Assembly (NCBI GenBank): GCA_048882045.1
Contig: JBHLRZ010000029.1
Location: forward strand, 1-40,289
DNA: 40,289 nt
Direction of reading: 5' to 3'
Origin: Candidatus Thorarchaeota archaeon
Lineage (GTDB): Archaea > Asgardarchaeota > Thorarchaeia > Thorarchaeales > Thorarchaeaceae
Part shown: positions 27,185 to 40,224 of the stretch, piece by piece
Layout of the letters: each line of letters opens with the position of its first letter
How positions within the stretch are numbered: position 1 is the first letter of the stretch
Made by a program: the position numbers and the translations under genes
Notes under the pieces: generated by a model
Told to the model about the DNA's origin: nothing
The model's database searches: none
The model's input: only the letters and a program-made list of their open reading frames with translations

Positions 27185-28720
27185 CTATGGTACTGGTGGG
27201 ATTGCTGCAAATGCATAGTTCGAGATAATCCATGGTGCAATGAACAATACAAAGACTGCAATAACACAGACTGTGACTGCAACCATTGGTATTGTTGGCA
27301 TCCTGATTGGACTATCATCAACAGGCTCAACCATGTATGTGTATCTCAAGACTCGCAGATAGTAACCCAGAGAGAAGACTGAGTTCAGAAGACCAATCAA
27401 TGCAAGCCACCACATTCCAGCGATAACAGCACTCGCGAAGAGCCACAGCTTGGACCAGAAACCGACTGTAAGAGGCATGCCTGCGAGTGACAACATCAGT
27501 ATAGCAAATGAAGCTGCTACTATAGGTGACCTTTTGCTCAATCCAGCCAAGTCATCATAGGTTATTCTCTTTGCTAGTTGAATCGATAATGCCCACACAA
27601 GTATGAATGCTGCTGTCTTCATGATTGCATGAGTAAAAGCCATGAACAATGCTGATCCAACACCCCATGTGTATGCTTGTAGTGACACAGCAGGATCCGT
27701 TGCAGCACTGATTCCTATGAAGAGATAGCCCATCATCGCGATTGACGAGTAAGCCAGCATCCTCATGATGTCTTTCTGAGCGAGCGCGAGGATATTTCCT
27801 ATGATCATGGTCAGTATTGCCACACCAGCAATAAGGAACATCCACTCTGTCTGTGCAGCCACAAATCCAACAATGAGGATTCTCATCAGAGCTCCAACAC
27901 CTGTCTTCTTCGATCCGCCAGCTAGATAGGCAGTAACACTACCATCTGCACTTGCATAGGCGTCTGGTACCCATTGCCACCCTGGAAAAACTCCCACTTT
28001 GAATCCAAATGAAGCTATGAACAGGATAACTGCGAGGATCATTGTGTAAGCAGCATTTGGCATTGTGGCAGACATGTTCCAGATGTTGGCTACTTCAGCG
28101 GCAACTTCAGAGATCACAGTGGTTCCAGTGACTCCATAGACTAGGGCAATCCCAAAGATCATCAACATGGTTGCTAGAAGACCCATGACAAAGTACTTTG
28201 TCGCTCCGTCAACAGCCTCTCGACCTGGACCCAGAGCAACGAGGATATACGTTGGAGTAGACATCACTTCCCAGCCAATGAAAAGTCCCACGAAATCGAC
28301 TGCCATCACAACCCACATCGCACCGGCAAAGGAAATCAGCAACATGAAGTTGTATGGACCCTTGTCCCCACCATAGAGCGTTGAGGACATCAGCACCAAG
28401 AAACCAACCAGGATGATGATATAGATAAAGAAGTCAGCCATGGGGTCTCGTACAAACTGCATGTTGGTTGTGTCTATAGTAGCTATAAGTGGGTCTAAAG
28501 CAACCATCTCAACAGCAGCCAGTGCAAGTCCTAGGAAACTGACGCCAAGAGGATTGTATCTCATTCCAACAATGAGAGCTAGAATCCCGAACAGGATGAG
28601 CGTTATTGATGGAAGTGACATTATCATGGTGTCTGTCAGTGGTAGAGTTCCTAGAAAGTTCGTGAAAGGCGCAAATAGAGCCTGTATGAAATCTGCAAAT
28701 GGTCCAAGTTGTAACATCAT
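27185..28720 (-). CDS. nuoN: Complex I-like antiporter subunit N
   Basis: FIGWEVMS, ATKYFVMG, GFKVGVFP..WVPDAY, GGSKK, RMLAYSSIAMMGY, SLAGMPLTVGFWSK, SLGYYLR. Confidence 0.9.
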   Translation of the reverse strand: MMLQLGPFADFIQALFAPFTNFLGTLPLTDTMIMSLPSITLILFGILALIVGMRYNPLGVSFLGLALAAVEMVALDPLIATIDTTNMQFVRDPMADFFIYIIILVGFLVLMSSTLYGGDKGPYNFMLLISFAGAMWVVMAVDFVGLFIGWEVMSTPTYILVALGPGREAVDGATKYFVMGLLATMLMIFGIALVYGVTGTTVISEVAAEVANIWNMSATMPNAAYTMILAVILFIASFGFKVGVFPGWQWVPDAYASADGSVTAYLAGGSKKTGVGALMRILIVGFVAAQTEWMFLIAGVAILTMIIGNILALAQKDIMRMLAYSSIAMMGYLFIGISAATDPAVSLQAYTWGVGSALFMAFTHAIMKTAAFILVWALSIQLAKRITYDDLAGLSKRSPIVAASFAILMLSLAGMPLTVGFWSKLWLFASAVIAGMWWLALIGLLNSVFSLGYYLRVLRYTYMVEPVDDSPIRMPTIPMVAVTVCVIAVFVLFIAPWIISNYAFAAIPPVP

Positions 28721-30297
28721 GGAACACCTCCGAGTATGAAGGCAACGATTGTTTCTGTGAAGCCAAGGACAAGATCTGGCCAGACACCCAAAAGGATGAC
28801 TGGAATCATCATCAGTATTGGAGCAATGAGGTCACTCCATGGTGCCTCGGTTACTTCTTTCTCAGGGTCGGGATCACTGAACACAATGCGATTCAACATC
28901 CAGAGAATGTAGCCCACTGTGATGAAGATTCCAAACGTGATGATACCTGCCCAGAGGTAGACGACCACTGAACCAAAAAGGACCAGTGCCTCTGCTATGA
29001 ATCCGCTGAAGCCGGGTAGGCCAAACGCAGCGAATGCAGCGAGTATAAGGACTGCTGACATCCTTGGAGCTTTTGTCATGAGACCCTGGATATCAGGGAG
29101 CTCTCTTGTGCCTGCTGTGTACTTCAGCTGTCCAGCCATGATAAACATCACTGAGATGATTGTGCCGTGACTGAACATCATGAATATCGAGCCTTGAATT
29201 GCTAGATGTGATGCTGCAACAATATTGGGATATAGAACAGGATCCAACCCGATTCCAACTGAACCTACCGCAACCCCAAGAAGTACCCAAGACATATGAT
29301 TGATTGAAGTGTACGCAACGAGACTTTTCAGGTCTGTCTGGGCCATTGCTGTAAAAGCTGCATAGATGCATGTGAAGATGGCTAGGGCGGCAAATGGGAT
29401 GCTCAGCCGGGCAAAGGAGTCTGGAATCAACCATAGTCCTAGACGGATGAAGGTATATCCGCCCATTTTCAGCAGGATACCTGCGAGTATCACAGACCCT
29501 GGCGTAGGAGCCTTTACATGAGCCCATGGAAGCCAGTTGTGCAGCGGAAACACAGGGAGCTTGACTCCAGCCCCCATGAATATGCCTAATGTAAAGCCAA
29601 TCTGTATCATCGGAGCTAGTGTTGGAATAGAATCTCTGAGGGCAATCATGCTGAATGTGTATGTCCCTGTTGATTCTCCTGCAAAGAGGTAAATCATGAA
29701 GAAGGCAACCAACATGACTGCTGAACCAAGATGGGTATAGATGAAGAACTTGACAGCAGCATGCTCACATCCTTCCTCACCCCATCGACCGATAATGAAG
29801 AACATCGGTATCAAGACCAGCTCCCAGAAAATGAAGAAACCGATCAAATCGAGTGACATGAAGACACCCATGAGGCCTGTCTGCAATAGAAGGAACAGCG
29901 AGTAATAGAGACCCTCTGATTTGTGAATGTGGTTTGAACTCAAGGCTGCGATGAAGACCACGAGATTGGACAGGAGTATCATTATGACAGAAAGACCGTC
30001 TACTCCTAGTGTGAACTGAAATACAGTATCACCTACTCCGATTGGAATCGTTGCTATGACAAAGTCTCTGAGGAAGTTCATTCCAGCATCAGTCGGGAAT
30101 AGACTGACATTGATCCCAAGAACCAAGATTACAGACAGACCCAATTCTAAGAAGGTCACAAGCAGTGTGATTGCTCTCGCACCCTTCCCTCCAGCAAAAT
30201 ACGCGATGAGCGCAGCTACCAGTGGCAGGATGAGCATGAATGCAAGTGGTCCGAAGGGTAATTGTGACAATAGGTTAACAGCGAAGTCCATCTGCAT
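28717..30297 (-). CDS. nuoM: Complex I-like antiporter subunit M (canonical)
   Basis: LGVDGLS, FFIFWELVLIPMF, AAVKFFIYT, VKLPVFPLHNWLP.AH..APT.GSVILAGILLKMGGY, AYTSINHM, GLPGFSGFIAE. Confidence 0.92.
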   Translation of the reverse strand: MQMDFAVNLLSQLPFGPLAFMLILPLVAALIAYFAGGKGARAITLLVTFLELGLSVILVLGINVSLFPTDAGMNFLRDFVIATIPIGVGDTVFQFTLGVDGLSVIMILLSNLVVFIAALSSNHIHKSEGLYYSLFLLLQTGLMGVFMSLDLIGFFIFWELVLIPMFFIIGRWGEEGCEHAAVKFFIYTHLGSAVMLVAFFMIYLFAGESTGTYTFSMIALRDSIPTLAPMIQIGFTLGIFMGAGVKLPVFPLHNWLPWAHVKAPTPGSVILAGILLKMGGYTFIRLGLWLIPDSFARLSIPFAALAIFTCIYAAFTAMAQTDLKSLVAYTSINHMSWVLLGVAVGSVGIGLDPVLYPNIVAASHLAIQGSIFMMFSHGTIISVMFIMAGQLKYTAGTRELPDIQGLMTKAPRMSAVLILAAFAAFGLPGFSGFIAEALVLFGSVVVYLWAGIITFGIFITVGYILWMLNRIVFSDPDPEKEVTEAPWSDLIAPILMMIPVILLGVWPDLVLGFTETIVAFILGGVP

Positions 30298-30298
30298 C

Positions 30299-32605
30299 TT
30301 ATATCACTCCTAATGCGATCAATGAGAGTATAATGAGTATTCCAATTCCGAACATCACAACACTGACATAGTCGTTGACTCTTCCAGTCTGGGTCTCTGA
30401 TAGACCAGCTTCAGAAGCGCGGACACTCCGAGTTGAGATTCCCTCGGCGAAACCATCGACTATGTTGTCGTCAACCCATCGTACTTTAGTTGAGATGGCA
30501 ACAGCAGCATCTGCTGACTTGAAGTCAATGCCATCGATTATCTTGTCGTCTACTCTGTACTTGTACCACTCAGCAAACCGTAGGAACCTTCTGAGGAACC
30601 AATGATAACCTTCGTTGATGTACCATCGATGTTTGAGGAAGTTGTAGATCCTTCGACGAATACCTGTTTCACCAACAAAGGTGTTCGGTTTGTCAGAATT
30701 TTTGATGTACATCCAGTAGCCAGGAACTCCACCCGCTAGAAGAGCCAATATCGTAATGGCAAAGGGTGGGAAGCCATCTGGGCTAAACTTGACAGTAAGC
30801 ATGTGAACGATGATGTATTCATATGAGTGAGTGTCGTTGATTGCTATCTGCTGGATGACTGGGAATATCAGGAATGCAAAAAATGTGAATACCACTAGTA
30901 GATACAATGGTATCATCATTGCCGGGCCTGGATCGTGAGGAGTCTGATGATGGTCATCATGGTGTTCCTCCATATCATGGTGCACCTCTTCATCATGGTG
31001 TTCCTCCTCATCGTGTGACTCGGACTCATACTCTTCATGGGATTCATGTGAGCCACCATTGGAGGGACCATAGAATGTGATGCCCATCAGCCTGAGGCTA
31101 TAGAATATGGTACAGGCAGCTGCGAGTATAGCAAAGAAGAACAGCAACCAACCAATAGGGTTAACCCAGTTAGCTGCGAGTTCGTAGGTATATTCTATAA
31201 TCGAGTCCTTGGACCAGAAACCTGAGAAGGGAGGGATACCAGCCAGTGCTAAAACACCAACCCACATGACAGCCCAAGTCTTCCTCATGTGCTTTTTGAG
31301 ACCGCCCATCTTCGAGATGTACTTCGTATGTACCGCATGTATCACTCCACCGGAAGCAAGGAACAGGAGCGCCTTGAAAGCACCGTGTGCAACTACATGC
31401 ATGACACTACTCAGGTATGCATGGTCATAGCCCAGATGGTTGACCTCCATGAGACCTCCAACTCCGAGTGCCAAGATCATGTAACCGAGCTGTGATAGTG
31501 TCGAGAAGGCAAGAATCTGCTTGAGCTCGTTGGACACCATTCCCATAGTTGCAGTCATGATGGCTGTGAAACCACCAATGATCGCCACAATGATGAAGAA
31601 CGTGAATGCAGCCTCGAAACCAACGAGCTGCGCAGCGCTGAATCCATGTTCTCCCCCTTCACCACCAGTTGCGCCTGACGCGCTAAGCATGGTCAGCAGG
31701 AACCTTGCAGTAATGTAGACTCCAGCCTTGACCATGGTTGCGGCGTGAATCAGAGCTGAAACGCTTGTCGGACCTGCCATAGCTTCAGGCAACCAGACCT
31801 GAAGGGGAGCCTGACCAGACTTACCAATAGCACCCATGAATATCAGGATGAACACTGGAACAAGTAGACCAAATCCGGCCATAAGACCCCACCAGTCATT
31901 ACTGTTCTGTGCGATACCTGTAAGGCTGGTTGTACCCAGGGTTGTACTCTCGAACATGAAGGTTCCAGTGAAGACGAAGAGGAGTAAGATTCCTCCAAGC
32001 ATGAATGCGTCTCCAATCCTGGTGACGATGAACGCCTTGGTTCCGCAGTAGCTGTTGTACGCTCCTTCAGTCTTGAAGCGAAGTAGCGGATTCTTTTGTT
32101 CGTATCCTGTGGGATCTTCCTCAGGTGGATTCCTCTTGTCGTTCCAGAATCCAATCAGACCATAGCTGCAGAAGCCCATAATCTCCCAGCCAATAAAGCC
32201 GATCAGCAAGTTGTTGCTGAGGACAAGAGTGAGCATACCACCACCAAAGGCTAGCATCAGGAAGAAGAACCGACTGCGGTCTTCCTCATGTGCCATATAC
32301 TCAGTCGAGTAGACATAGATCAGGAAACATAAGGTGCTGGCAAGTATAGCCATTATGACTGACAGCGAGTCCAAGAGAATACCAAATGGTACTTCGAGCA
32401 CTCCGGGAATGTTGATCCAAATCCAAGTAGGATTGCCATGGCCAATGTCAGGAAGTAATGACCAACAGAATATCATAGTGATACCCATGAAGATAGCTGG
32501 AAGCCAATCCCTGAGACGAGCACTGTATCTACCTGCAAGAGGTACTAGTAGTGAACCGCCTAGGGGAATGATAAGGATGATATATTCTGGTAGACCGAAC
32601 AGCAT
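30299..32605 (-). CDS. nuoL: Complex I-like antiporter subunit L with extended lateral helix
   Basis: GWEIMGFCSYGLIGFW, KAFIVTRIGD, GKSGQAPLQVWLPEAMAGPTSVSALIHAATMV, HGAFKALLFL, GFWSKD, C-terminal QTGRVNDY. Confidence 0.93.
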   Translation of the reverse strand: MLFGLPEYIILIIPLGGSLLVPLAGRYSARLRDWLPAIFMGITMIFCWSLLPDIGHGNPTWIWINIPGVLEVPFGILLDSLSVIMAILASTLCFLIYVYSTEYMAHEEDRSRFFFLMLAFGGGMLTLVLSNNLLIGFIGWEIMGFCSYGLIGFWNDKRNPPEEDPTGYEQKNPLLRFKTEGAYNSYCGTKAFIVTRIGDAFMLGGILLLFVFTGTFMFESTTLGTTSLTGIAQNSNDWWGLMAGFGLLVPVFILIFMGAIGKSGQAPLQVWLPEAMAGPTSVSALIHAATMVKAGVYITARFLLTMLSASGATGGEGGEHGFSAAQLVGFEAAFTFFIIVAIIGGFTAIMTATMGMVSNELKQILAFSTLSQLGYMILALGVGGLMEVNHLGYDHAYLSSVMHVVAHGAFKALLFLASGGVIHAVHTKYISKMGGLKKHMRKTWAVMWVGVLALAGIPPFSGFWSKDSIIEYTYELAANWVNPIGWLLFFFAILAAACTIFYSLRLMGITFYGPSNGGSHESHEEYESESHDEEEHHDEEVHHDMEEHHDDHHQTPHDPGPAMMIPLYLLVVFTFFAFLIFPVIQQIAINDTHSYEYIIVHMLTVKFSPDGFPPFAITILALLAGGVPGYWMYIKNSDKPNTFVGETGIRRRIYNFLKHRWYINEGYHWFLRRFLRFAEWYKYRVDDKIIDGIDFKSADAAVAISTKVRWVDDNIVDGFAEGISTRSVRASEAGLSETQTGRVNDYVSVVMFGIGILIILSLIALGVI
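30452..30553 (-). repeat. 78-nt (26-codon) period tandem duplication in the nuoL lateral-helix region
   Basis: accatcgactatgttgtcgtcaac (30452-30475) vs gccatcgattatcttgtcgtctac (30530-30553), 20/24 identical; they encode VDDNIVDG and VDDKIIDG. Confidence 0.85.
30954..31007 (-). repeat. 3 x 18-nt tandem repeat in the His/acidic loop of NuoL
   Basis: tcatcatggtgttcctcc / atatcatggtgcacctct / tcatcatggtgttcctcc, encoding EEHHDE-EVHHDM-EEHHDD. Confidence 0.8.
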
Positions 32606-32616
32606 CTTGAATCACC

Positions 32617-34158
32617 TCATGGATAGAGTCCTATTCCGTTGACCGCCGGGACGATGACATCTAGTGCCAGTCCTGGGAATATTCCAAAGATTACAATGAG
32701 AATCCCGAGGATGATCATCGGAATGGTCATCGACCGAGAGGATTCTTTGACATTCTCCAGCTCCTCAGGATGAGGACCTAGGAAAACCTTCCAGAAGAAT
32801 CGTAACATGTATCCTGCACTCAGGATCGAGCTAGAGACTGCAAGGATTGAGAGGATGAGGAAGGGTAAATCAGTGCCTACAATAAGCAGAGATCCATCAT
32901 AGATGAAAGCGTGATCGAATCCGCCCAAGAACATCATCCACTCACTAGCAAATCCAGAGAGAGGAGGACTTCCTGCGATACTCATCATCCCAATTGCCGC
33001 AGCAAACGCTGTGATGGGCATCTTGTTCGAGAGACCTCCCATTTGAGATATGTCCCTCAGTCCAGTCTGATGGATGACAGCTCCAGCTGTCATAAACAAG
33101 AGACCCTTGGAGAAGGCATGATTGATCAGATGGAACATACCACCTGCGACACCATTTATTGTGAACACACCCAAAGCAAATAGCACGTAACCCATCTGGC
33201 TGACAGATGAGTAGGCCAGAAGTCTCTTGATGTCCCTCTGAGCCAAGGCCATGAAACCACCGTAGAACATGGTGATGACTCCGAGAGCAGCGAGCCCGAT
33301 TGCTAGTGCATCAGCGGCAGCATTCAGCGTGATGGTGCCAAAACGAACCAGAGCATAAGCACCTGTCTCAATCATAGCTCCAGACAAGAGTACCGAGATT
33401 GGAGTCGGAGCCTCAGCGTGAACAGGTGGTAGCCACCAATGAATCGGAAACACTGCCATCTTGACTAAGAACCCAGCTCCGAGAAGTATGAAGACAACCT
33501 TCAGTAAGGTGAGAACTTCTGCACTAGGAGCCACAAATGCTGCTCCGATGTTGGCTAGTACAAAGGAACCTGTCAAGGAATACATGATACCGAATCCAAC
33601 CAGAATAAGTACTGCTCCTGACTGGGTATATAGCCAGAACTTCATGGCTGTCCGTTTTCGAGTTTCAGGGAGTCCCCAGAAGAGAATCAAAAAGTAGCTC
33701 GGAACTAGCATCAATTCCCAAGCGATGAAAAATTCGATCACATTTGTTGCCATGGTCACCCATTGCATACCCATTATGAAGAAGAGTGTGTTAGCAAAGA
33801 AGGTGGGCCTGTTCTCAGAGTGCTCTGTATAGCCGACTGCATAGACTACTGAGAGAAATCCTAAGACAACTATTGCAAATGTGATTGGGAACGCTATTCC
33901 ATCCAGCAAGAGTCCAAATGGTTCCAGTAGTATAGACCAGACTGCATACTCAGTATATTCATACCCTGGACCACCTGTGAGTACCTTGTAGAAGGGATAG
34001 ACCATCAGGAGCATTGCAAAGAATGAGATACCCACTGCTACTTTACCAGCTGACTTTTCGAATGATCCCTTGAAGACATAGATGAGAAGACCACCAATGA
34101 ACAGCACAAAAAGAGATAGTGCTGCGAACGGGATGTTTTCAAGTGCTAGTATCTGCAT
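32617..34158 (-). CDS. Additional (fourth) antiporter-like subunit, NuoM/MrpD-like ('M2')
   Basis: FFIAWELMLVPSYFLI, AMKFWLYT, VKMAVFPIHWWLP.VHAEAPTPISVLLSG, DIKRLLAYSSVSQMGY, NHAFSKGLLF, AGSPPLSGFASE. Confidence 0.9.
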   Translation of the reverse strand: MQILALENIPFAALSLFVLFIGGLLIYVFKGSFEKSAGKVAVGISFFAMLLMVYPFYKVLTGGPGYEYTEYAVWSILLEPFGLLLDGIAFPITFAIVVLGFLSVVYAVGYTEHSENRPTFFANTLFFIMGMQWVTMATNVIEFFIAWELMLVPSYFLILFWGLPETRKRTAMKFWLYTQSGAVLILVGFGIMYSLTGSFVLANIGAAFVAPSAEVLTLLKVVFILLGAGFLVKMAVFPIHWWLPPVHAEAPTPISVLLSGAMIETGAYALVRFGTITLNAAADALAIGLAALGVITMFYGGFMALAQRDIKRLLAYSSVSQMGYVLFALGVFTINGVAGGMFHLINHAFSKGLLFMTAGAVIHQTGLRDISQMGGLSNKMPITAFAAAIGMMSIAGSPPLSGFASEWMMFLGGFDHAFIYDGSLLIVGTDLPFLILSILAVSSSILSAGYMLRFFWKVFLGPHPEELENVKESSRSMTIPMIILGILIVIFGIFPGLALDVIVPAVNGIGLYP

Positions 34159-35760: not shown

Positions 35761-36896
35761 CTATCCCACCATCCTGGATAGGGGTCAAGACTTCCAAATA
35801 TTACAATAAAGTCCGCAAACTTCGAACCTGGGACCAGGTCCTTCAATGCATAGTAGGATGCTATGCACGGTCCGCGAATCTTTGCTCGATATGCAGTCTG
35901 TGCCTTGTCGAGAGTCTTTAGCCAAAGTGAAGTGATACCCCTTGTACCTTCAATTCGAGCATAGGCCTCTCCTTCAGGCAGACGGTTTGCCTTAGCGCGA
36001 GCCTTTGGATCAATTATAGGTCCAGACTCTGGAAGCTGAGGTAATAATTGTTTGACAATCTCCACAGCGGTCTCTGCTTCTTTGAACCGCTGTTCCATGC
36101 GATCAAGAGCATCACTCTGTCCCGGATGCTCCGGATTCTCTGTGATTGGAACCTCCCAATCAACCATATCATACGCTAGGTTTGGATCAGGGTCATCTTT
36201 TCTCAAGTCCATAGGTACACCACATGCCTTGATCGGGGGACCACTGAGACCCCATTTCAGACCCTGTTTGTAATCATATAGACCAATGTCTTTTGTTCTC
36301 GCCCTGAAAGTAGGACTTCCCATTTGCATGTCTCTGAACTTTGGAAGTCGGTCCTCAAAGCGATCGATAGCACGGTGAAGCCTATTCATGAACTTGTCTG
36401 TGAAATCGTACTTTACACCACCAGGCGTGGAGTATGAAACAGTGTGACGGGATCCAGTGAGCTCCTCGAAGACATCAAGCGAATACTCTCTGTCAACCCA
36501 TGGCCAGAGTGCCATTGTGAAGAATCCGAGTTCAGCATTAAATTGGCCCCACCAAAATTGTATGCTGTGCATACGGGACATCTCCATCATGATGGTCCTC
36601 ATTATCTTTGCACGTTCAGGAACTTCAATCTCAGCAATCTTCTCAACTGCAGCAACATATGGATACTCAGCAAGGAATGCCTCAAGCATACACATCCTTT
36701 CCAAGACCAATGAACCCTGTCGAAAGTTCTTGAACTCAAGGACCTTTTCTGCAGACCTATGGAAGTAACCAGCGTTGGGGTCACATTCAACAACATAATC
36801 TCCAACCAAAGTCAACTTGGTCGCCCAACCGTGAGCTGAGACATGTTGCGGGCCAAACCAGATGTCCATAGATTCATCGAGGATGTCAGGACTCAC
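35757..36896 (-). CDS. nuoD: Complex I-like catalytic subunit D (non-[NiFe])
   Basis: FGPQHVSAHG, GYFHRSAEK, EVPERAK..R...EMSR..S, TGSR, PGGV, GLSGP, GEAYARIEGTRG, GSLD....DR; no CxxC pairs. Confidence 0.9.
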   Translation of the reverse strand: MSPDILDESMDIWFGPQHVSAHGWATKLTLVGDYVVECDPNAGYFHRSAEKVLEFKNFRQGSLVLERMCMLEAFLAEYPYVAAVEKIAEIEVPERAKIMRTIMMEMSRMHSIQFWWGQFNAELGFFTMALWPWVDREYSLDVFEELTGSRHTVSYSTPGGVKYDFTDKFMNRLHRAIDRFEDRLPKFRDMQMGSPTFRARTKDIGLYDYKQGLKWGLSGPPIKACGVPMDLRKDDPDPNLAYDMVDWEVPITENPEHPGQSDALDRMEQRFKEAETAVEIVKQLLPQLPESGPIIDPKARAKANRLPEGEAYARIEGTRGITSLWLKTLDKAQTAYRAKIRGPCIASYYALKDLVPGSKFADFIVIFGSLDPYPGWWDR

Positions 36897-37399
36897 TGGC
36901 TGTCACCTCCTTCTGGTTTGGGGCGTGGTTTTGGAGGAGCCATACCGGTATCATCTTCGCGACTCTGGTCTGGCTTGAACCGCTTACGCATTGGATATGC
37001 TCCATCAAGTTCGTCAGGGAGCAGAAATAGCCGAGGATCTGGATGATTCTTGAAATCGATACCAAACATCTCACGGACCTCTCGTTCATGCCATTCAAGC
37101 CCAGGAATGATGTCGCAGGAGCTTTCAATCTCAGGATTTTCTCCTTCAAGGAACACCCTTAGTTGGACCAGTGTCTTTGTGGCCCATGACCAGAAGAGGT
37201 AGATCAGATTATACTGGTCATTTTCAAGATCGATTCCAAAGACTGATTCAGGCATTGCATCTTCAAGTTCTTCTTCTATGATTGTGATGACATCACGAAT
37301 CTTCTCAGCAGGCACTATGAGCTCGATCTTGTTATCACCAAGAGGATTTGATGTCACTTCAGGTATCTTATTGATGACTGCTCTTCCAATCATAGACAT
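36893..37399 (-). CDS. nuoC: Complex I-like subunit C
   Basis: PGLEWHEREVREMFGIDFKNHPDPRLFLLP...YPMRK. Confidence 0.92.
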   Translation of the reverse strand: MSMIGRAVINKIPEVTSNPLGDNKIELIVPAEKIRDVITIIEEELEDAMPESVFGIDLENDQYNLIYLFWSWATKTLVQLRVFLEGENPEIESSCDIIPGLEWHEREVREMFGIDFKNHPDPRLFLLPDELDGAYPMRKRFKPDQSREDDTGMAPPKPRPKPEGGDSQ

Positions 37400-37711
37400 C
37401 TATGCAACCTCCCTATCGACCACTCTTCCTAGGTCAACTGAACCATAACGTCTGTTATACATCAGCATCAAGACAAGAGCCAAAGCGGTATGAGCAGCCG
37501 CCACTGAAATCACCAAGATAATCAACCCTTGGGCAGTCAGATTGAAAGTTGGACTATAGAGTGCAAATGCAACCAGCGCGATGTTGACGCCGTTCCCCAT
37601 TATTTCAGCACCTATTAGGATTCTAATGAGGTTCCGCTTGACCATCATTCCATATGCTCCTAGACCTATCAGTATGAATGCCACAACAAGATACCAAGAA
37701 AGTGGGACCAT
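37400..37711 (-). CDS. nuoK: Complex I-like subunit K
   Basis: 3 TMs, KRNLIRILIGAEIMGNG, SVAAAH.ALAL. Confidence 0.9.
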   Translation of the reverse strand: MVPLSWYLVVAFILIGLGAYGMMVKRNLIRILIGAEIMGNGVNIALVAFALYSPTFNLTAQGLIILVISVAAAHTALALVLMLMYNRRYGSVDLGRVVDREVA

Positions 37712-38376
37712 TATACATCCACCTCCTCAGGTTCTTCACCAGCATCTTCCTCATCAGCTGGTTCAGATTCTTGTTCTAGATCCGATTCCTCTGAATCAAC
37801 CTCAGCCTCGATGCCAAACTCACCTTGGATTGAACTGAGTTGTTCAGCCTTGTCCATCTTCAGAAGTGCTACAGCTCCAATTAAGGAAGTAATCATGATG
37901 ATGGCTATCATCTGTACTAGGAGGCCATTGTCAACCCATAGCCATTCCGCCAGTGCACCCAGGTCTTGAGAGAAGTCGACTACAACTTCATTGAATGACT
38001 CAGCCCATGGAAAAATGAGTGCAAGAATAGCTGAGAGAGTTGCTACGAGTCCGGCGAGTAGTTGTCCAGCCCTTCTCTTTCTCCCTGATGCAAACTCTTC
38101 AAGCGACGAGTCTTGAGCTCGAGGTAAGAGCAAGACACCAAATATGATGAGTGCGCTGATCCCTCCAGTGTATACTGCAATCTGCATTCCGGCAATGAAG
38201 GGAGCTTCAAGTAGTAGGAAGAACGCTGCCACAAACGAGGCCATAAAGCCAAAGAAGAAGGCAGCGTAAACGATTTCCTTATGTTCAAGTGCGAGATAGG
38301 CAAGAATAATGACAATCGCTGCAATCAGGATGAACTCCACTTGTTCAAATAATTGATAGACTGGATCTACCTGCAT
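37711..38376 (-). CDS. nuoJ: Complex I-like subunit J with acidic C-terminal tail
   Basis: LLLEAPFIAGMQIAVYTGGISALIIF, terminal TM SLIGAVAL. Confidence 0.9.
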   Translation of the reverse strand: MQVDPVYQLFEQVEFILIAAIVIILAYLALEHKEIVYAAFFFGFMASFVAAFFLLLEAPFIAGMQIAVYTGGISALIIFGVLLLPRAQDSSLEEFASGRKRRAGQLLAGLVATLSAILALIFPWAESFNEVVVDFSQDLGALAEWLWVDNGLLVQMIAIIMITSLIGAVALLKMDKAEQLSSIQGEFGIEAEVDSEESDLEQESEPADEEDAGEEPEEVDV

Positions 38377-38378
38377 CT

Positions 38379-38837
38379 TTAGTGACTCCCTGTGATTTCG
38401 TGTGATTTCTCTCGCTCAGCCTTTGCCTTGCGGTATTGCTCGAGAGTCTCTTTTCCATCCAAGGCTGCGTGTGGGAGCATCTTCATCACAAATCCGATAC
38501 CACCCATGACAATCAGAATGAATAGAATGACCTGCCACACCAACTCCTGTGGATTGGGGCCTGTTGGCCAAAGCAGTGCCGAAGAAGAAAGCAGCCATAG
38601 GAACGCGCCCATCACATCAACAACTACAAAGAGAACAGTATAGATGAAGTAGTTGTATGGATACGAGATTCTTGCAGGTCCAATTGGTTCCTCCCCGCAC
38701 TCATAGCTCGATGTTTTCTCTGAGTTCTGGAGGACGTGGGGTCGCAAGACCCAAGATGCGAGAAGCATCACCACGACCAACACCATTGCTAGTAGTGCCC
38801 ATACAATAACAGGTATGAAATCAATGAACAGCCTCAT
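38379..38837 (-). CDS. nuoA: Complex I-like subunit A
   Basis: EKTSSYECGEEP, YFIYTVLFVVVDV; ATG 38837 preferred, with GAGGA upstream. Confidence 0.9.
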   Translation of the reverse strand: MRLFIDFIPVIVWALLAMVLVVVMLLASWVLRPHVLQNSEKTSSYECGEEPIGPARISYPYNYFIYTVLFVVVDVMGAFLWLLSSSALLWPTGPNPQELVWQVILFILIVMGGIGFVMKMLPHAALDGKETLEQYRKAKAEREKSHEITGSH

Positions 38838-39120
38838 GCTACATGACCATCCTCTAGTAAAGTATCGAAATAACAAACTGCGTTAGTTGAAGGACCTGAA
38901 TTCTTAGCATAACCTGTATTGTTGAGTAGTTCCCTTGTCATTCCTTCCAAGTTCCTTCTATGCTAACTCGTCGCGACAGGTGCAGTTCGAAACTAACCTC
39001 ATGTTAAATGTTGGTCTTTCTTAGCCAACTAGTTTAGAGATTGATGTTCACATCTGCACCTTGAAACTGAAGTTGGCGGTAAGAATGACCCTGATAAAAA
39101 CACTTCGGGCAATCCGACTC

Positions 39121-39134
39121 AAAGAAGTTATATA
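39121..39134 (+). promoter_or_regulatory. Candidate BRE/TATA box in the divergent intergenic region
   Basis: aaagaag-ttatata about 50 nt upstream of the ORF at 39183; the TATA element could also serve the minus-strand operon. Confidence 0.35.
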
Positions 39135-39182
39135 CTGGCTCGGGGCGAACAAATTCTCGATACAAAGTTCCATATTTGTAAG

Positions 39183-39569
39183 GTGATAGATTTGGTACGT
39201 GGCGAAGAAGGAACTTTCTTCTACTATCTAGGGCTCCTATTTGGGATGACTCTGGTTGGGTCTTACATCTGGCTCATCCTGAATGCAACAATCTGGAATG
39301 TTCTGCTTCATATGATTTTGGTCATGAGTGGAATAATCTTGGTCGCAGGTGCTCTCGGTTTTGCATCTGCCAAGACGAGATCGAGCCGTGTAGGATTGAC
39401 CATGCTCTCTGGAATAACTGGGGGGATTCATGCATACCTGATATTCTCATACTTGACATATCATCCATATGCCGAAACATATGATGTGATTGCAGCAATC
39501 GTTCTCTTTGCATGGATTGCATTTGGTACTCTAGTTGCCTTTGCCACGTTAAGTTGGCTACAGGAATAG
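39183..39569 (+). CDS. Small hypothetical membrane protein (4 TM)
   Basis: Four hydrophobic segments; start uncertain. Confidence 0.7.
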   Translation: MIDLVRGEEGTFFYYLGLLFGMTLVGSYIWLILNATIWNVLLHMILVMSGIILVAGALGFASAKTRSSRVGLTMLSGITGGIHAYLIFSYLTYHPYAETYDVIAAIVLFAWIAFGTLVAFATLSWLQE

Positions 39570-39578
39570 AAAATTCAA

Positions 39579-39600
39579 ATGAGGCCGCCAATGGCCTCAT
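39579..39600. terminator. Hairpin between convergent genes
   Basis: atgaggcc[gccaat]ggcctcat, 8-bp perfect inverted repeat. Confidence 0.6.
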
Positions 39601-39606
39601 CTCAGT

Positions 39607-40224
39607 TTAATTTCCCTCGGATTTCAGCTCAGACTCTGTGTCAGTTGTCTCAGCTGTGTCCTCCGATGCAGATGCAGATTCTTCTGAAGCTGCCTCAGGT
39701 TCAGAAGTAGACTCAGCCGTAGGTTCTGGTTCTGGCTCGGGTTCTGGTTCAGGACCAAAGCGGAGTGTACTAGTGTCCATGATTCCAGGTGATGTGCTTT
39801 CTTCCCTGTTGTGCATTATAGCAAAGCCTGCTGCAGTAAGAATCGATCCACCCAAGCCCCATATGGAGTAGTAAAATCCAGAGTTATCCGGAGTCATAGC
39901 GAGAACAACATAGAGTGAATCTGTGAAGAAATATGTGAAGACGACAAAGAAGAACCCTAGTACGACTGCGATAGACATTGCAGTGTTCTTTGCCTTCCCT
40001 TTCTCAGGACGGAAGTAACCAATCAAGAAGAAGACTATGAGAACTGGTATGCCCCCAACGAACAGGAAGTACTGGGCGACCAGAATCCACGTGCTCGGAT
40101 ATGAAATTACTAGGAAGAGATAGTTGAATATGTATGCAGAGAGTACAACTAACCCTAGTAAAGTCAGGCAATACGGGTCGCTGTCCTGCCTCAGTATGTC
40201 AGAATCGTCTCCATGTAGGGTCAT
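39607..40224 (-). CDS. Hypothetical membrane protein (4 TM) with Pro-Glu repeat and acidic low-complexity tail
   Basis: Four TMs followed by GPEPEPEPEPEPTAESTSEPE...; start uncertain. Confidence 0.72.
   Translation of the reverse strand: MTLHGDDSDILRQDSDPYCLTLLGLVVLSAYIFNYLFLVISYPSTWILVAQYFLFVGGIPVLIVFFLIGYFRPEKGKAKNTAMSIAVVLGFFFVVFTYFFTDSLYVVLAMTPDNSGFYYSIWGLGGSILTAAGFAIMHNREESTSPGIMDTSTLRFGPEPEPEPEPEPTAESTSEPEAASEESASASEDTAETTDTESELKSEGN

Follow-up and report, generated by a model that had tools for sequence, protein, structure and literature searches.

A doubled 26-residue module in the NuoL lateral helix of a Thorarchaeial complex I-like operon with four antiporter-like subunits

Introduction

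Does a longer lateral helix in NuoL mean that another ion pump has been built into a complex I-like enzyme? The question is raised by a 40,289-nucleotide (nt) stretch of DNA from a Candidatus Thorarchaeota archaeon (assembly GCA_048882045.1, contig JBHLRZ010000029.1, positions 1-40,289 of the forward strand), hereafter the window. It encodes a complex I-like operon with four antiporter-like subunits in the order M2-L-M-N, and the protein encoded by its nuoL-like gene (P0001) has a lateral helix that contains the same short motif twice. An earlier reading, made from the letters of the window (the sequence-only reading), took this doubling as a tandem duplication, probably convergent with that of bacterial 2M complexes, and as 'independent, structure-level evidence' for a fourth antiporter built physically into the arm. 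We compared P0001 and its operon with relatives across Archaea and Bacteria. The helix is longer by one module, which judging by its distribution was gained before the class arose; a longer helix alone does not prove that an extra pump is built in. That the helix spans M2 in this Asgard clade is nevertheless the reading we find most likely, by a modest measure.

Results and discussion

Two modules in one helix

Canonical NuoL has a single module between a WY anchor and a QTG anchor, marked by the motif D-x-x-(I/V)(I/V)-D-G. In P0001 the motif occurs twice, as VDDKIIDG from residue 685 and as VDDNIVDG from residue 711, exactly 26 codons (78 nt) apart and with 20 of 24 nucleotides identical between the two motif cores; the sequence-only reading had described all of this correctly. 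In the family alignment R660 and W661 are invariant and Y662, I663, N664 and E665 nearly so, while at the other end of the measured stretch Q739 and T740 are nearly invariant and G741 invariant. The elements of the helix were located as follows.

30611 to 30628, minus strand: RWYINE anchor motif, residues 660-665, start of the measured stretch (from the translation)
30479 to 30556, minus strand: helix module 1, residues 684-709, with VDDKIIDG
30401 to 30478, minus strand: helix module 2, residues 710-735, with VDDNIVDG
30383 to 30391, minus strand: QTG motif, residues 739-741, helix end (from the translation)
30404 to 30661, minus strand: predicted lateral helix, residues 649-734 (helices 649-659 and 661-734; AlphaFold2, predicted local distance difference test score, pLDDT, 41-81)
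30314 to 30382, minus strand: transmembrane helix 16 (TM16), the anchor helix, residues 742-764 (AlphaFold2 secondary structure)

A repeat finder applied to positions 30299-30800 returned a single direct repeat family: two 23-nt copies, 30453-30475 and 30531-30553, which are 87% identical and spaced by 78 nt. The best-scoring pair of 8-mers in the helix region (BLOSUM62 score 35) also lay at an offset of 26, and its score was reached by 3 of 5000 shuffles. When profiles of the two units were built from 117 Thorarchaeial sequences and compared with hhalign, they matched with an E-value of 3.4e-5 and 72% probability over 11 columns; only controls shifted by +7 to +20 were valid negatives, those shifted by -26 to -7 having overlapped unit 1 or held the motif. 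Over their full length the units agree at 8 of 26 residues and 36 of 78 nucleotides, and outside the motif cores at 16 of 54 nucleotides. Autocorrelation of the Thorarchaeial alignment, scored with BLOSUM, did not single out offset 26 (15.7 versus 15.4 at offset 30). Because the profile match covers 11 columns, the units share 8 of 26 residues and the autocorrelation is flat, the recognisable likeness of the two units is restricted to the motif and its immediate flanks.

Net gain in helix length

From W661 to Q739, P0001 measures 78 residues. The corresponding WY-to-QTG length is 50-52 in four NuoL paralogs from three-antiporter operons in the same class (L001, L003, L004 and L005) and 51 in cyanobacterial NdhF1 (6hum_F; counted from the alignment), so that the lateral helix of P0001 is longer by a net 26-27 residues. 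The sequence-only reading had expected a gain of about 26 residues in this count and close three-antiporter homologs free of the duplicated segment; the first expectation was borne out against both references, and the lengths of the same-class paralogs agree with the second. One stretch of NdhF1 (6hum_F residues 599-612) aligns with both units of P0001, and the flanks are of canonical length relative to NdhF1: by alignment count, the distance from W to the first DG is 31 in each protein, and that from the last DG to Q is 21 in P0001 and 20 in NdhF1.

The AlphaFold2 model of P0001, built from an alignment of 69 sequences, predicts the helix listed above, followed by TM16. For the one-module paralog L004, AlphaFold2 predicted a helix at residues 584-644 with two short breaks, about 25 residues shorter. 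The extra 26 helical residues would correspond to about 39 Å (26 × 1.5 Å), roughly the width of one antiporter-like subunit.

Age and origin of the second module

Both motifs lie exactly 26 residues apart in 118 of 120 homologs named Thorarchaeota, which are 49-81% identical to P0001 in the C-terminal part. The WY-to-QTG length is 77 or 78 in all 112 Thor-type proteins with unambiguous anchors, and it is also 77 in other Asgard lineages of the same clade (L002, L094-L096 and L111, with the source names Heimdallarchaeota and Asgardarchaeia). The duplication is old and predates the class. At the six conserved motif residues the two copies share four codons, about what codon usage would lead one to expect, and differ in two. 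Since 118 of 120 homologs keep both motifs 26 apart, the identity of 20 of 24 nucleotides reflects amino-acid constraint together with ordinary codon usage and is no sign of recency, despite the words 'still identical' in the sequence-only reading.

Younger repeats were found elsewhere. P0155 (L138) has near-identical tandem modules (20 of 26 residues identical by our own count), and P0151 (L139:5548-7641) has a nearly perfect 27-residue module repeat. Both sequences point to recent duplications, and through them the mechanism of tandem duplication is seen directly. Together with the single motif of one-module relatives and helix lengths that change in steps of 26, these repeats support an origin of the second module by tandem duplication of the helix's own module, as the sequence-only reading had proposed.

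Two other accounts of the second motif were considered. If there had been no duplication, the motif would have arisen by chance or convergence and the additional 26 residues would derive from an unrelated insertion. The short reach of the likeness (11 columns), the units' agreement at a mere 8 of 26 residues and an autocorrelation at offset 30 equal to that at 26 are all what such an origin would predict, yet it leaves unexplained the shuffle test, the constancy of the spacing among homologs, the quantisation of lengths by 26 across hundreds of proteins, the alignment of a single NdhF1 segment with both copies and the fresh repeats in P0151 and P0155; we consider it very improbable. Still less credible, to the point of being nearly negligible, is a recent duplication. 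The nucleotide identity of the motif cores would suit it, but the same spacing is kept in homologs down to 49% identity, both copies are present in other Asgard lineages of the clade, only 16 of 54 nucleotides are shared outside the motif, and two of the six conserved residues differ in codon. The distribution of both copies refutes a recent event.

Helix lengths across the NuoL family

Lateral helix lengths were surveyed in 149 representatives of the wider family and in 134 NuoL sequences from fetched loci. Four values of 57 proved to stem from misplaced WY anchors (the true value being 52), and values of 82 were truly 77. Across the survey, WY-to-QTG lengths occurred only at 24-25, 49-54, 76-81 or 103-105 residues. 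The NuoL lateral helix is thus quantised, at about 25, 51, 77 and 103 residues, and many NuoL carry two or three D-x-x-(I/V)(I/V)-D-G motifs at a spacing of 26 residues. A tree of 113 NuoL sequences requires module number to have changed at least 14 times.

The shortest helices, of 24-25 residues, contain no module. They were found in L115, L118, L120 and L136 (Asgard families f19, f8 and f27), each with two antiporter-like genes, and the same length was measured in P0135 and P0145, whose clusters likewise have two antiporter-like genes only. Such zero-module, two-antiporter NuoL are the downward counterpart of the duplication. At the other extreme, three modules (103-104 residues) were found in clusters with only L, M and N, both in an Asgard family with large genomes (f21; L121, L132 and L133) and in bacterial metagenome contigs (L009 and L012). 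A three-module NuoL of 105 residues also occurs in a cluster of the M2-L-M-N type (L107, G101:C25, Asgard family f12); this NuoL and the Thor-type clade occupy different parts of the tree.

Co-occurrence of the second module with M2

The presence of M2 was compared with module number, antiporter genes being counted by BLASTP labelling of open reading frames (ORFs) within 10 kb on each side of nuoL; three contigs (P0155, P0130 and L116) were too short for gene context. Matching of coordinates placed M2 orthologs directly upstream of a two-module nuoL in about 49 Thorarchaeial genomes. Inside Thorarchaeia, where the sequence-only reading had asked whether the insertion and M2 occur together, the agreement is perfect over genera g1-g17: genera g1-g12 and g17 have both M2 and a two-module NuoL, g14 and g16 have neither, and g13 and g15 gave weak partial matches only, from one-module paralogs.

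A NuoL core tree was calculated with the helix removed (MAFFT FFT-NS-i and FastTree, with local SH-like supports). In this tree the 9-10 two-module, four-antiporter sequences form one clade (supports 97 and 93), so the combination has a single origin there. Its members are the window, L002, L006-L008, L094-L096 and L111, their operons are all M2-L-M-N, and in the sister group most sequences have one module and three antiporters. Over the archaeal branch as sampled, loci classed by number of modules and number of antiporter genes were distributed as (1,3) 28, (2,4) 9, (0,2) 3, (2,2) 2 and (3,4) 1.

One genome, G064, was found to hold two different M2-NuoL pairs, on contigs C75 and C109, with NuoL 72% and 80% identical to that of the window, which would be explained by two operons or by a mixed bin.

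The operon and its nuoL gene

The operon has the order A-J-K-C-D-H-I-M2-L-M-N and is tightly packed on the minus strand. The following genes are those to which the argument refers.

38379 to 38876, minus strand: NuoA, 165 amino acids (aa) (PF00507)
32617 to 34158, minus strand: M2, 513 aa, fourth antiporter-like subunit, its gene immediately upstream of nuoL (Pfam, NCBIfam, orthologs)
30299 to 32605, minus strand: nuoL-like gene, 768 aa, P0001 (ORF, Pfam, TIGR01974, Foldseek)
28717 to 30297, minus strand: nuoM-like gene, 526 aa (TIGR01972, 411 bits)
27185 to 28720, minus strand: nuoN-like gene, 511 aa (NuoN models)

The assembly (3.6 Mb, 93% complete) has no PF00361 genes other than the four at 27185-34158. 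P0001 is a member of the NuoL/ND5/NdhF group by its core domains, its subfamily score, and its lateral helix with a single anchoring transmembrane helix. Its layout comprises a Proton_antipo_N and Proton_antipo_M core (PF00662, E 4.8e-15; PF00361, E 2.2e-53), a His/acidic loop, TM15, the lateral helix and TM16. It scored 445.2 bits against the subfamily model TIGR01974 NDH_I_L, above the cut-off of 407.5, and 481 against the equivalog NF005141, under that model's cut-off of 556. The best Foldseek matches of its model were NdhF/NuoL/ND5 chains (E about 1e-25 to 1e-20), the match to NdhF1 by sequence had an E-value of 1.6e-74, and the closest public proteins carry the name Candidatus Thorarchaeota.

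Between the antiporter core and TM15, P0001 has a low-complexity loop rich in His, Asp and Glu (30926-31057, residues 517-560). It contains a tandem array at 30955-31012 (an 18-nt, 6-codon unit in 3.2 copies), its pLDDT is below 50 at residues 519-552 in the AlphaFold2 model, and its length seems variable across homologs (total protein about 710-783 aa). The loop could bind metal. Upstream of nuoA, a 205-aa ORF (39607-40224, minus strand) gave a weak acidic-repeat match only (PARP, E 0.002); homologs occupy the same position in L007 and L008, and this ORF may be an unrecognised member of the operon.

Identity of M2 and comparison with known complexes

M2 scored 310.6 against TIGR01972 NDH_I_M, above the cut-off of 263.8, and nearly equally on the HyfB, MrpA and NuoL models. 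It is 29% identical to the NuoM of its own operon and 36% identical to the M-position subunit of archaeal three-antiporter operons. By these sequence comparisons M2 does not appear to be a duplicate of NuoM; its gene lies upstream of nuoL and its identity to NuoM is only 29%, which speaks against a NuoM copy inserted between L and N.

The 2M complex I of Nitrospira and other bacteria was reportedly treated by Chadwick et al. 2018 (ISME J 12:2668). As cited in three further papers (PMC9040806, PMC6606698, PMC7300363), a lengthened NuoL helix in 2M complexes is proposed to span the extra subunit. The Thorarchaeial operon shares with the Nitrospira 2M clusters (L016 and L032) the four antiporter-like subunits in one nuo cluster, the lack of NuoEFG genes in that cluster and a NuoL helix lengthened by 26 residues, the WY-to-QTG length being 77 in Nitrospira, where the insert can be read as a second, degenerate module spaced 26 residues from the first. 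The two differ in gene order, which is L-M-M-N in Nitrospira, and in the nature of the extra subunit, since the Thorarchaeial M2 is apparently no NuoM duplicate. The window has two features of the 2M type, a fourth antiporter-like gene in the nuo cluster and a NuoL helix about 26 residues longer, but does not descend from the described Nitrospira 2M clade, from whose NuoL it is separated by several strongly supported branches. Because the Asgard and Nitrospira NuoL fall in different, well-supported parts of the tree, their origins are independent, and the earlier suggestion of convergence is upheld with respect to Nitrospira 2M, the only 2M group covered by the tree sampling; a thaumarchaeal '2M clade 2' is also on record (PMC7300363). 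The system is of a known kind, a complex I of the 2M type whose helix carries a 26-residue insertion; the archaeal variant described here evolved independently, and its extra subunit appears to be a different one.

Three other groups are instructive for comparison. Complex_I_1 and Complex_I_2 of Ca. Manganitrophaceae have the 26-residue NuoL insertion with a single nuoM (PMC9040806); like these and many bacterial loci, P0001 has a two-module helix (77-78 residues, motifs 26 apart), whereas their clusters contain only L, M and N, and a fourth subunit always stands beside nuoL in the Thorarchaeial clade. With canonical NuoL, Nqo12, NdhF1 and ND5 (6hum_F, 8e9g_L, 4he8, 3rko), P0001 shares the fold, the domain order, the lateral helix and TM16, but those proteins have one module (51-53 residues), as compared to two modules and the additional His/acidic loop before TM15 in P0001. 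The one-module Asgard paralogs (L001, L003-L005, L102-L137) belong to the same class or phylum, have the WY and QTG anchors and lie in clusters like those of complex I or of group 4 hydrogenases; unlike the window, they have three antiporter-like genes and one module.

Does the helix span M2?

An in-frame tandem duplication of 78 nt at the base of the Asgard clade produced the second module, and purifying selection has preserved it since then, with about 11 residues of the copies still alike. The data show the repeat and its conservation, the longer helix, the single origin and the joint occurrence with M2. The interpretation we lean towards is that the lengthened helix starts at NuoL, passes over M2, M and N and is anchored by TM16. 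M2 would then lie beneath the helix, and the complex would pump one more ion per cycle. We hold it to be somewhat better than an even bet that the longer helix spans M2 in the Asgard clade, given that every operon of the clade encodes four antiporter-like subunits. The interpretation draws on one evolutionary co-occurrence and on the analogy to the 2M model.

Several observations weigh against it. The match within the Asgard clade stems from one event, so that statistically the co-occurrence counts as one observation, and an independent-pairs test had no power, with only 2 to 4 starred pairs. Outside the clade, module number often departs from antiporter number. The 80 bacterial loci and Asgard family f21 gave (1,3) 30, (2,3) 14, (3,3) 5 and (2,4) 2; both (2,4) loci are Nitrospira 2M clusters, and two of the (3,3) loci are bacterial and three from Asgard family f21, which thus pairs three modules with three antiporter genes. 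Three-module NuoL (P0189 and P0221) occur in plain K-L-M-N clusters. In the genomes holding L014, L020, L029, L093 and L017, which have a two-module NuoL and two or three complete antiporter sets each, no orphan antiporter gene was found. Mismatches occur in Archaea as well: two modules are combined with three antiporter genes in P0147 and P0151 (in P0151 in the order X-L-X), with two to three in P0132 and with two in L114 and L135, and L107 combines three modules with four antiporter genes. Similarity between the two units of P0001 spans only 11 columns, and pLDDT is low (41-64) across the second half of its helix. Finally, no match to NuoB (PF01058) was found anywhere in the 93%-complete assembly, the stretch 36893-40224 of the window included; separately, the relatives L095 and L096 encode NuoB close to the cluster. 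In light of the 19 L-M-N loci with two or three modules, the five genomes without an orphan and the archaeal mismatches, the claim that the lengthening is 'structure-level evidence' for a built-in fourth antiporter is not supported as it was worded.

The principal alternative is that the extra module is real and unrelated to M2, module number drifting by duplication and deletion. The longer helix could then shift TM16 towards NuoK, J, A or H, span subunits that are not antiporters, or simply be surplus, and M2 could be distal to NuoL or elsewhere. Drift of this kind would account for the 19 L-M-N loci, the five genomes without an orphan, the archaeal mismatches and the number of changes on the 113-sequence tree; it also fits the published report that clusters lacking an extra subunit can carry the insertion in their NuoL (PMC9040806), and an M2 whose gene precedes nuoL and which is only 29% identical to NuoM. 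It does not readily explain why all sampled M2-L-M-N operons of the Asgard clade have two modules, while the mostly three-antiporter sister group has mainly one and two-antiporter operons have none. Moreover, surplus sequence would hardly show the strong conservation seen in both modules. On balance we judge drift unlikely, though far from negligible, and continue to favour a helix that spans M2.

A broader proposal can be made only tentatively, as we give it rather less than an even chance. In one archaeal, mainly Asgard, branch of NuoL the helix may act as a modular ruler, in which zero, one and two modules go with two, three and four antiporters and each gain or loss of a copy, by in-frame 78-nt duplication or deletion, accompanies that of a pump subunit. 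On this view the M2-L-M-N enzyme of Thorarchaeia would be a four-pump complex that evolved independently, with an extra pump not derived from NuoM by duplication.

Implications

The clamp helix of NuoL is assembled from a 26-residue module that can be duplicated, has discrete lengths for that reason, and thus offers a simple read-out of arm architecture from sequence. Our survey indicates that the module count must not serve by itself to infer extra pumps: many three-pump enzymes carry surplus helix length, which poses the structural question of what lies beneath it. If the helix truly spans M2, then a complex I-like enzyme with four pumps evolved independently in Thorarchaeia and related Asgard lineages. 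Such an enzyme would bear on how the stoichiometry of ions to electrons is tuned at low energy yield, and on the bioenergetics of the archaeal relatives of eukaryotes.

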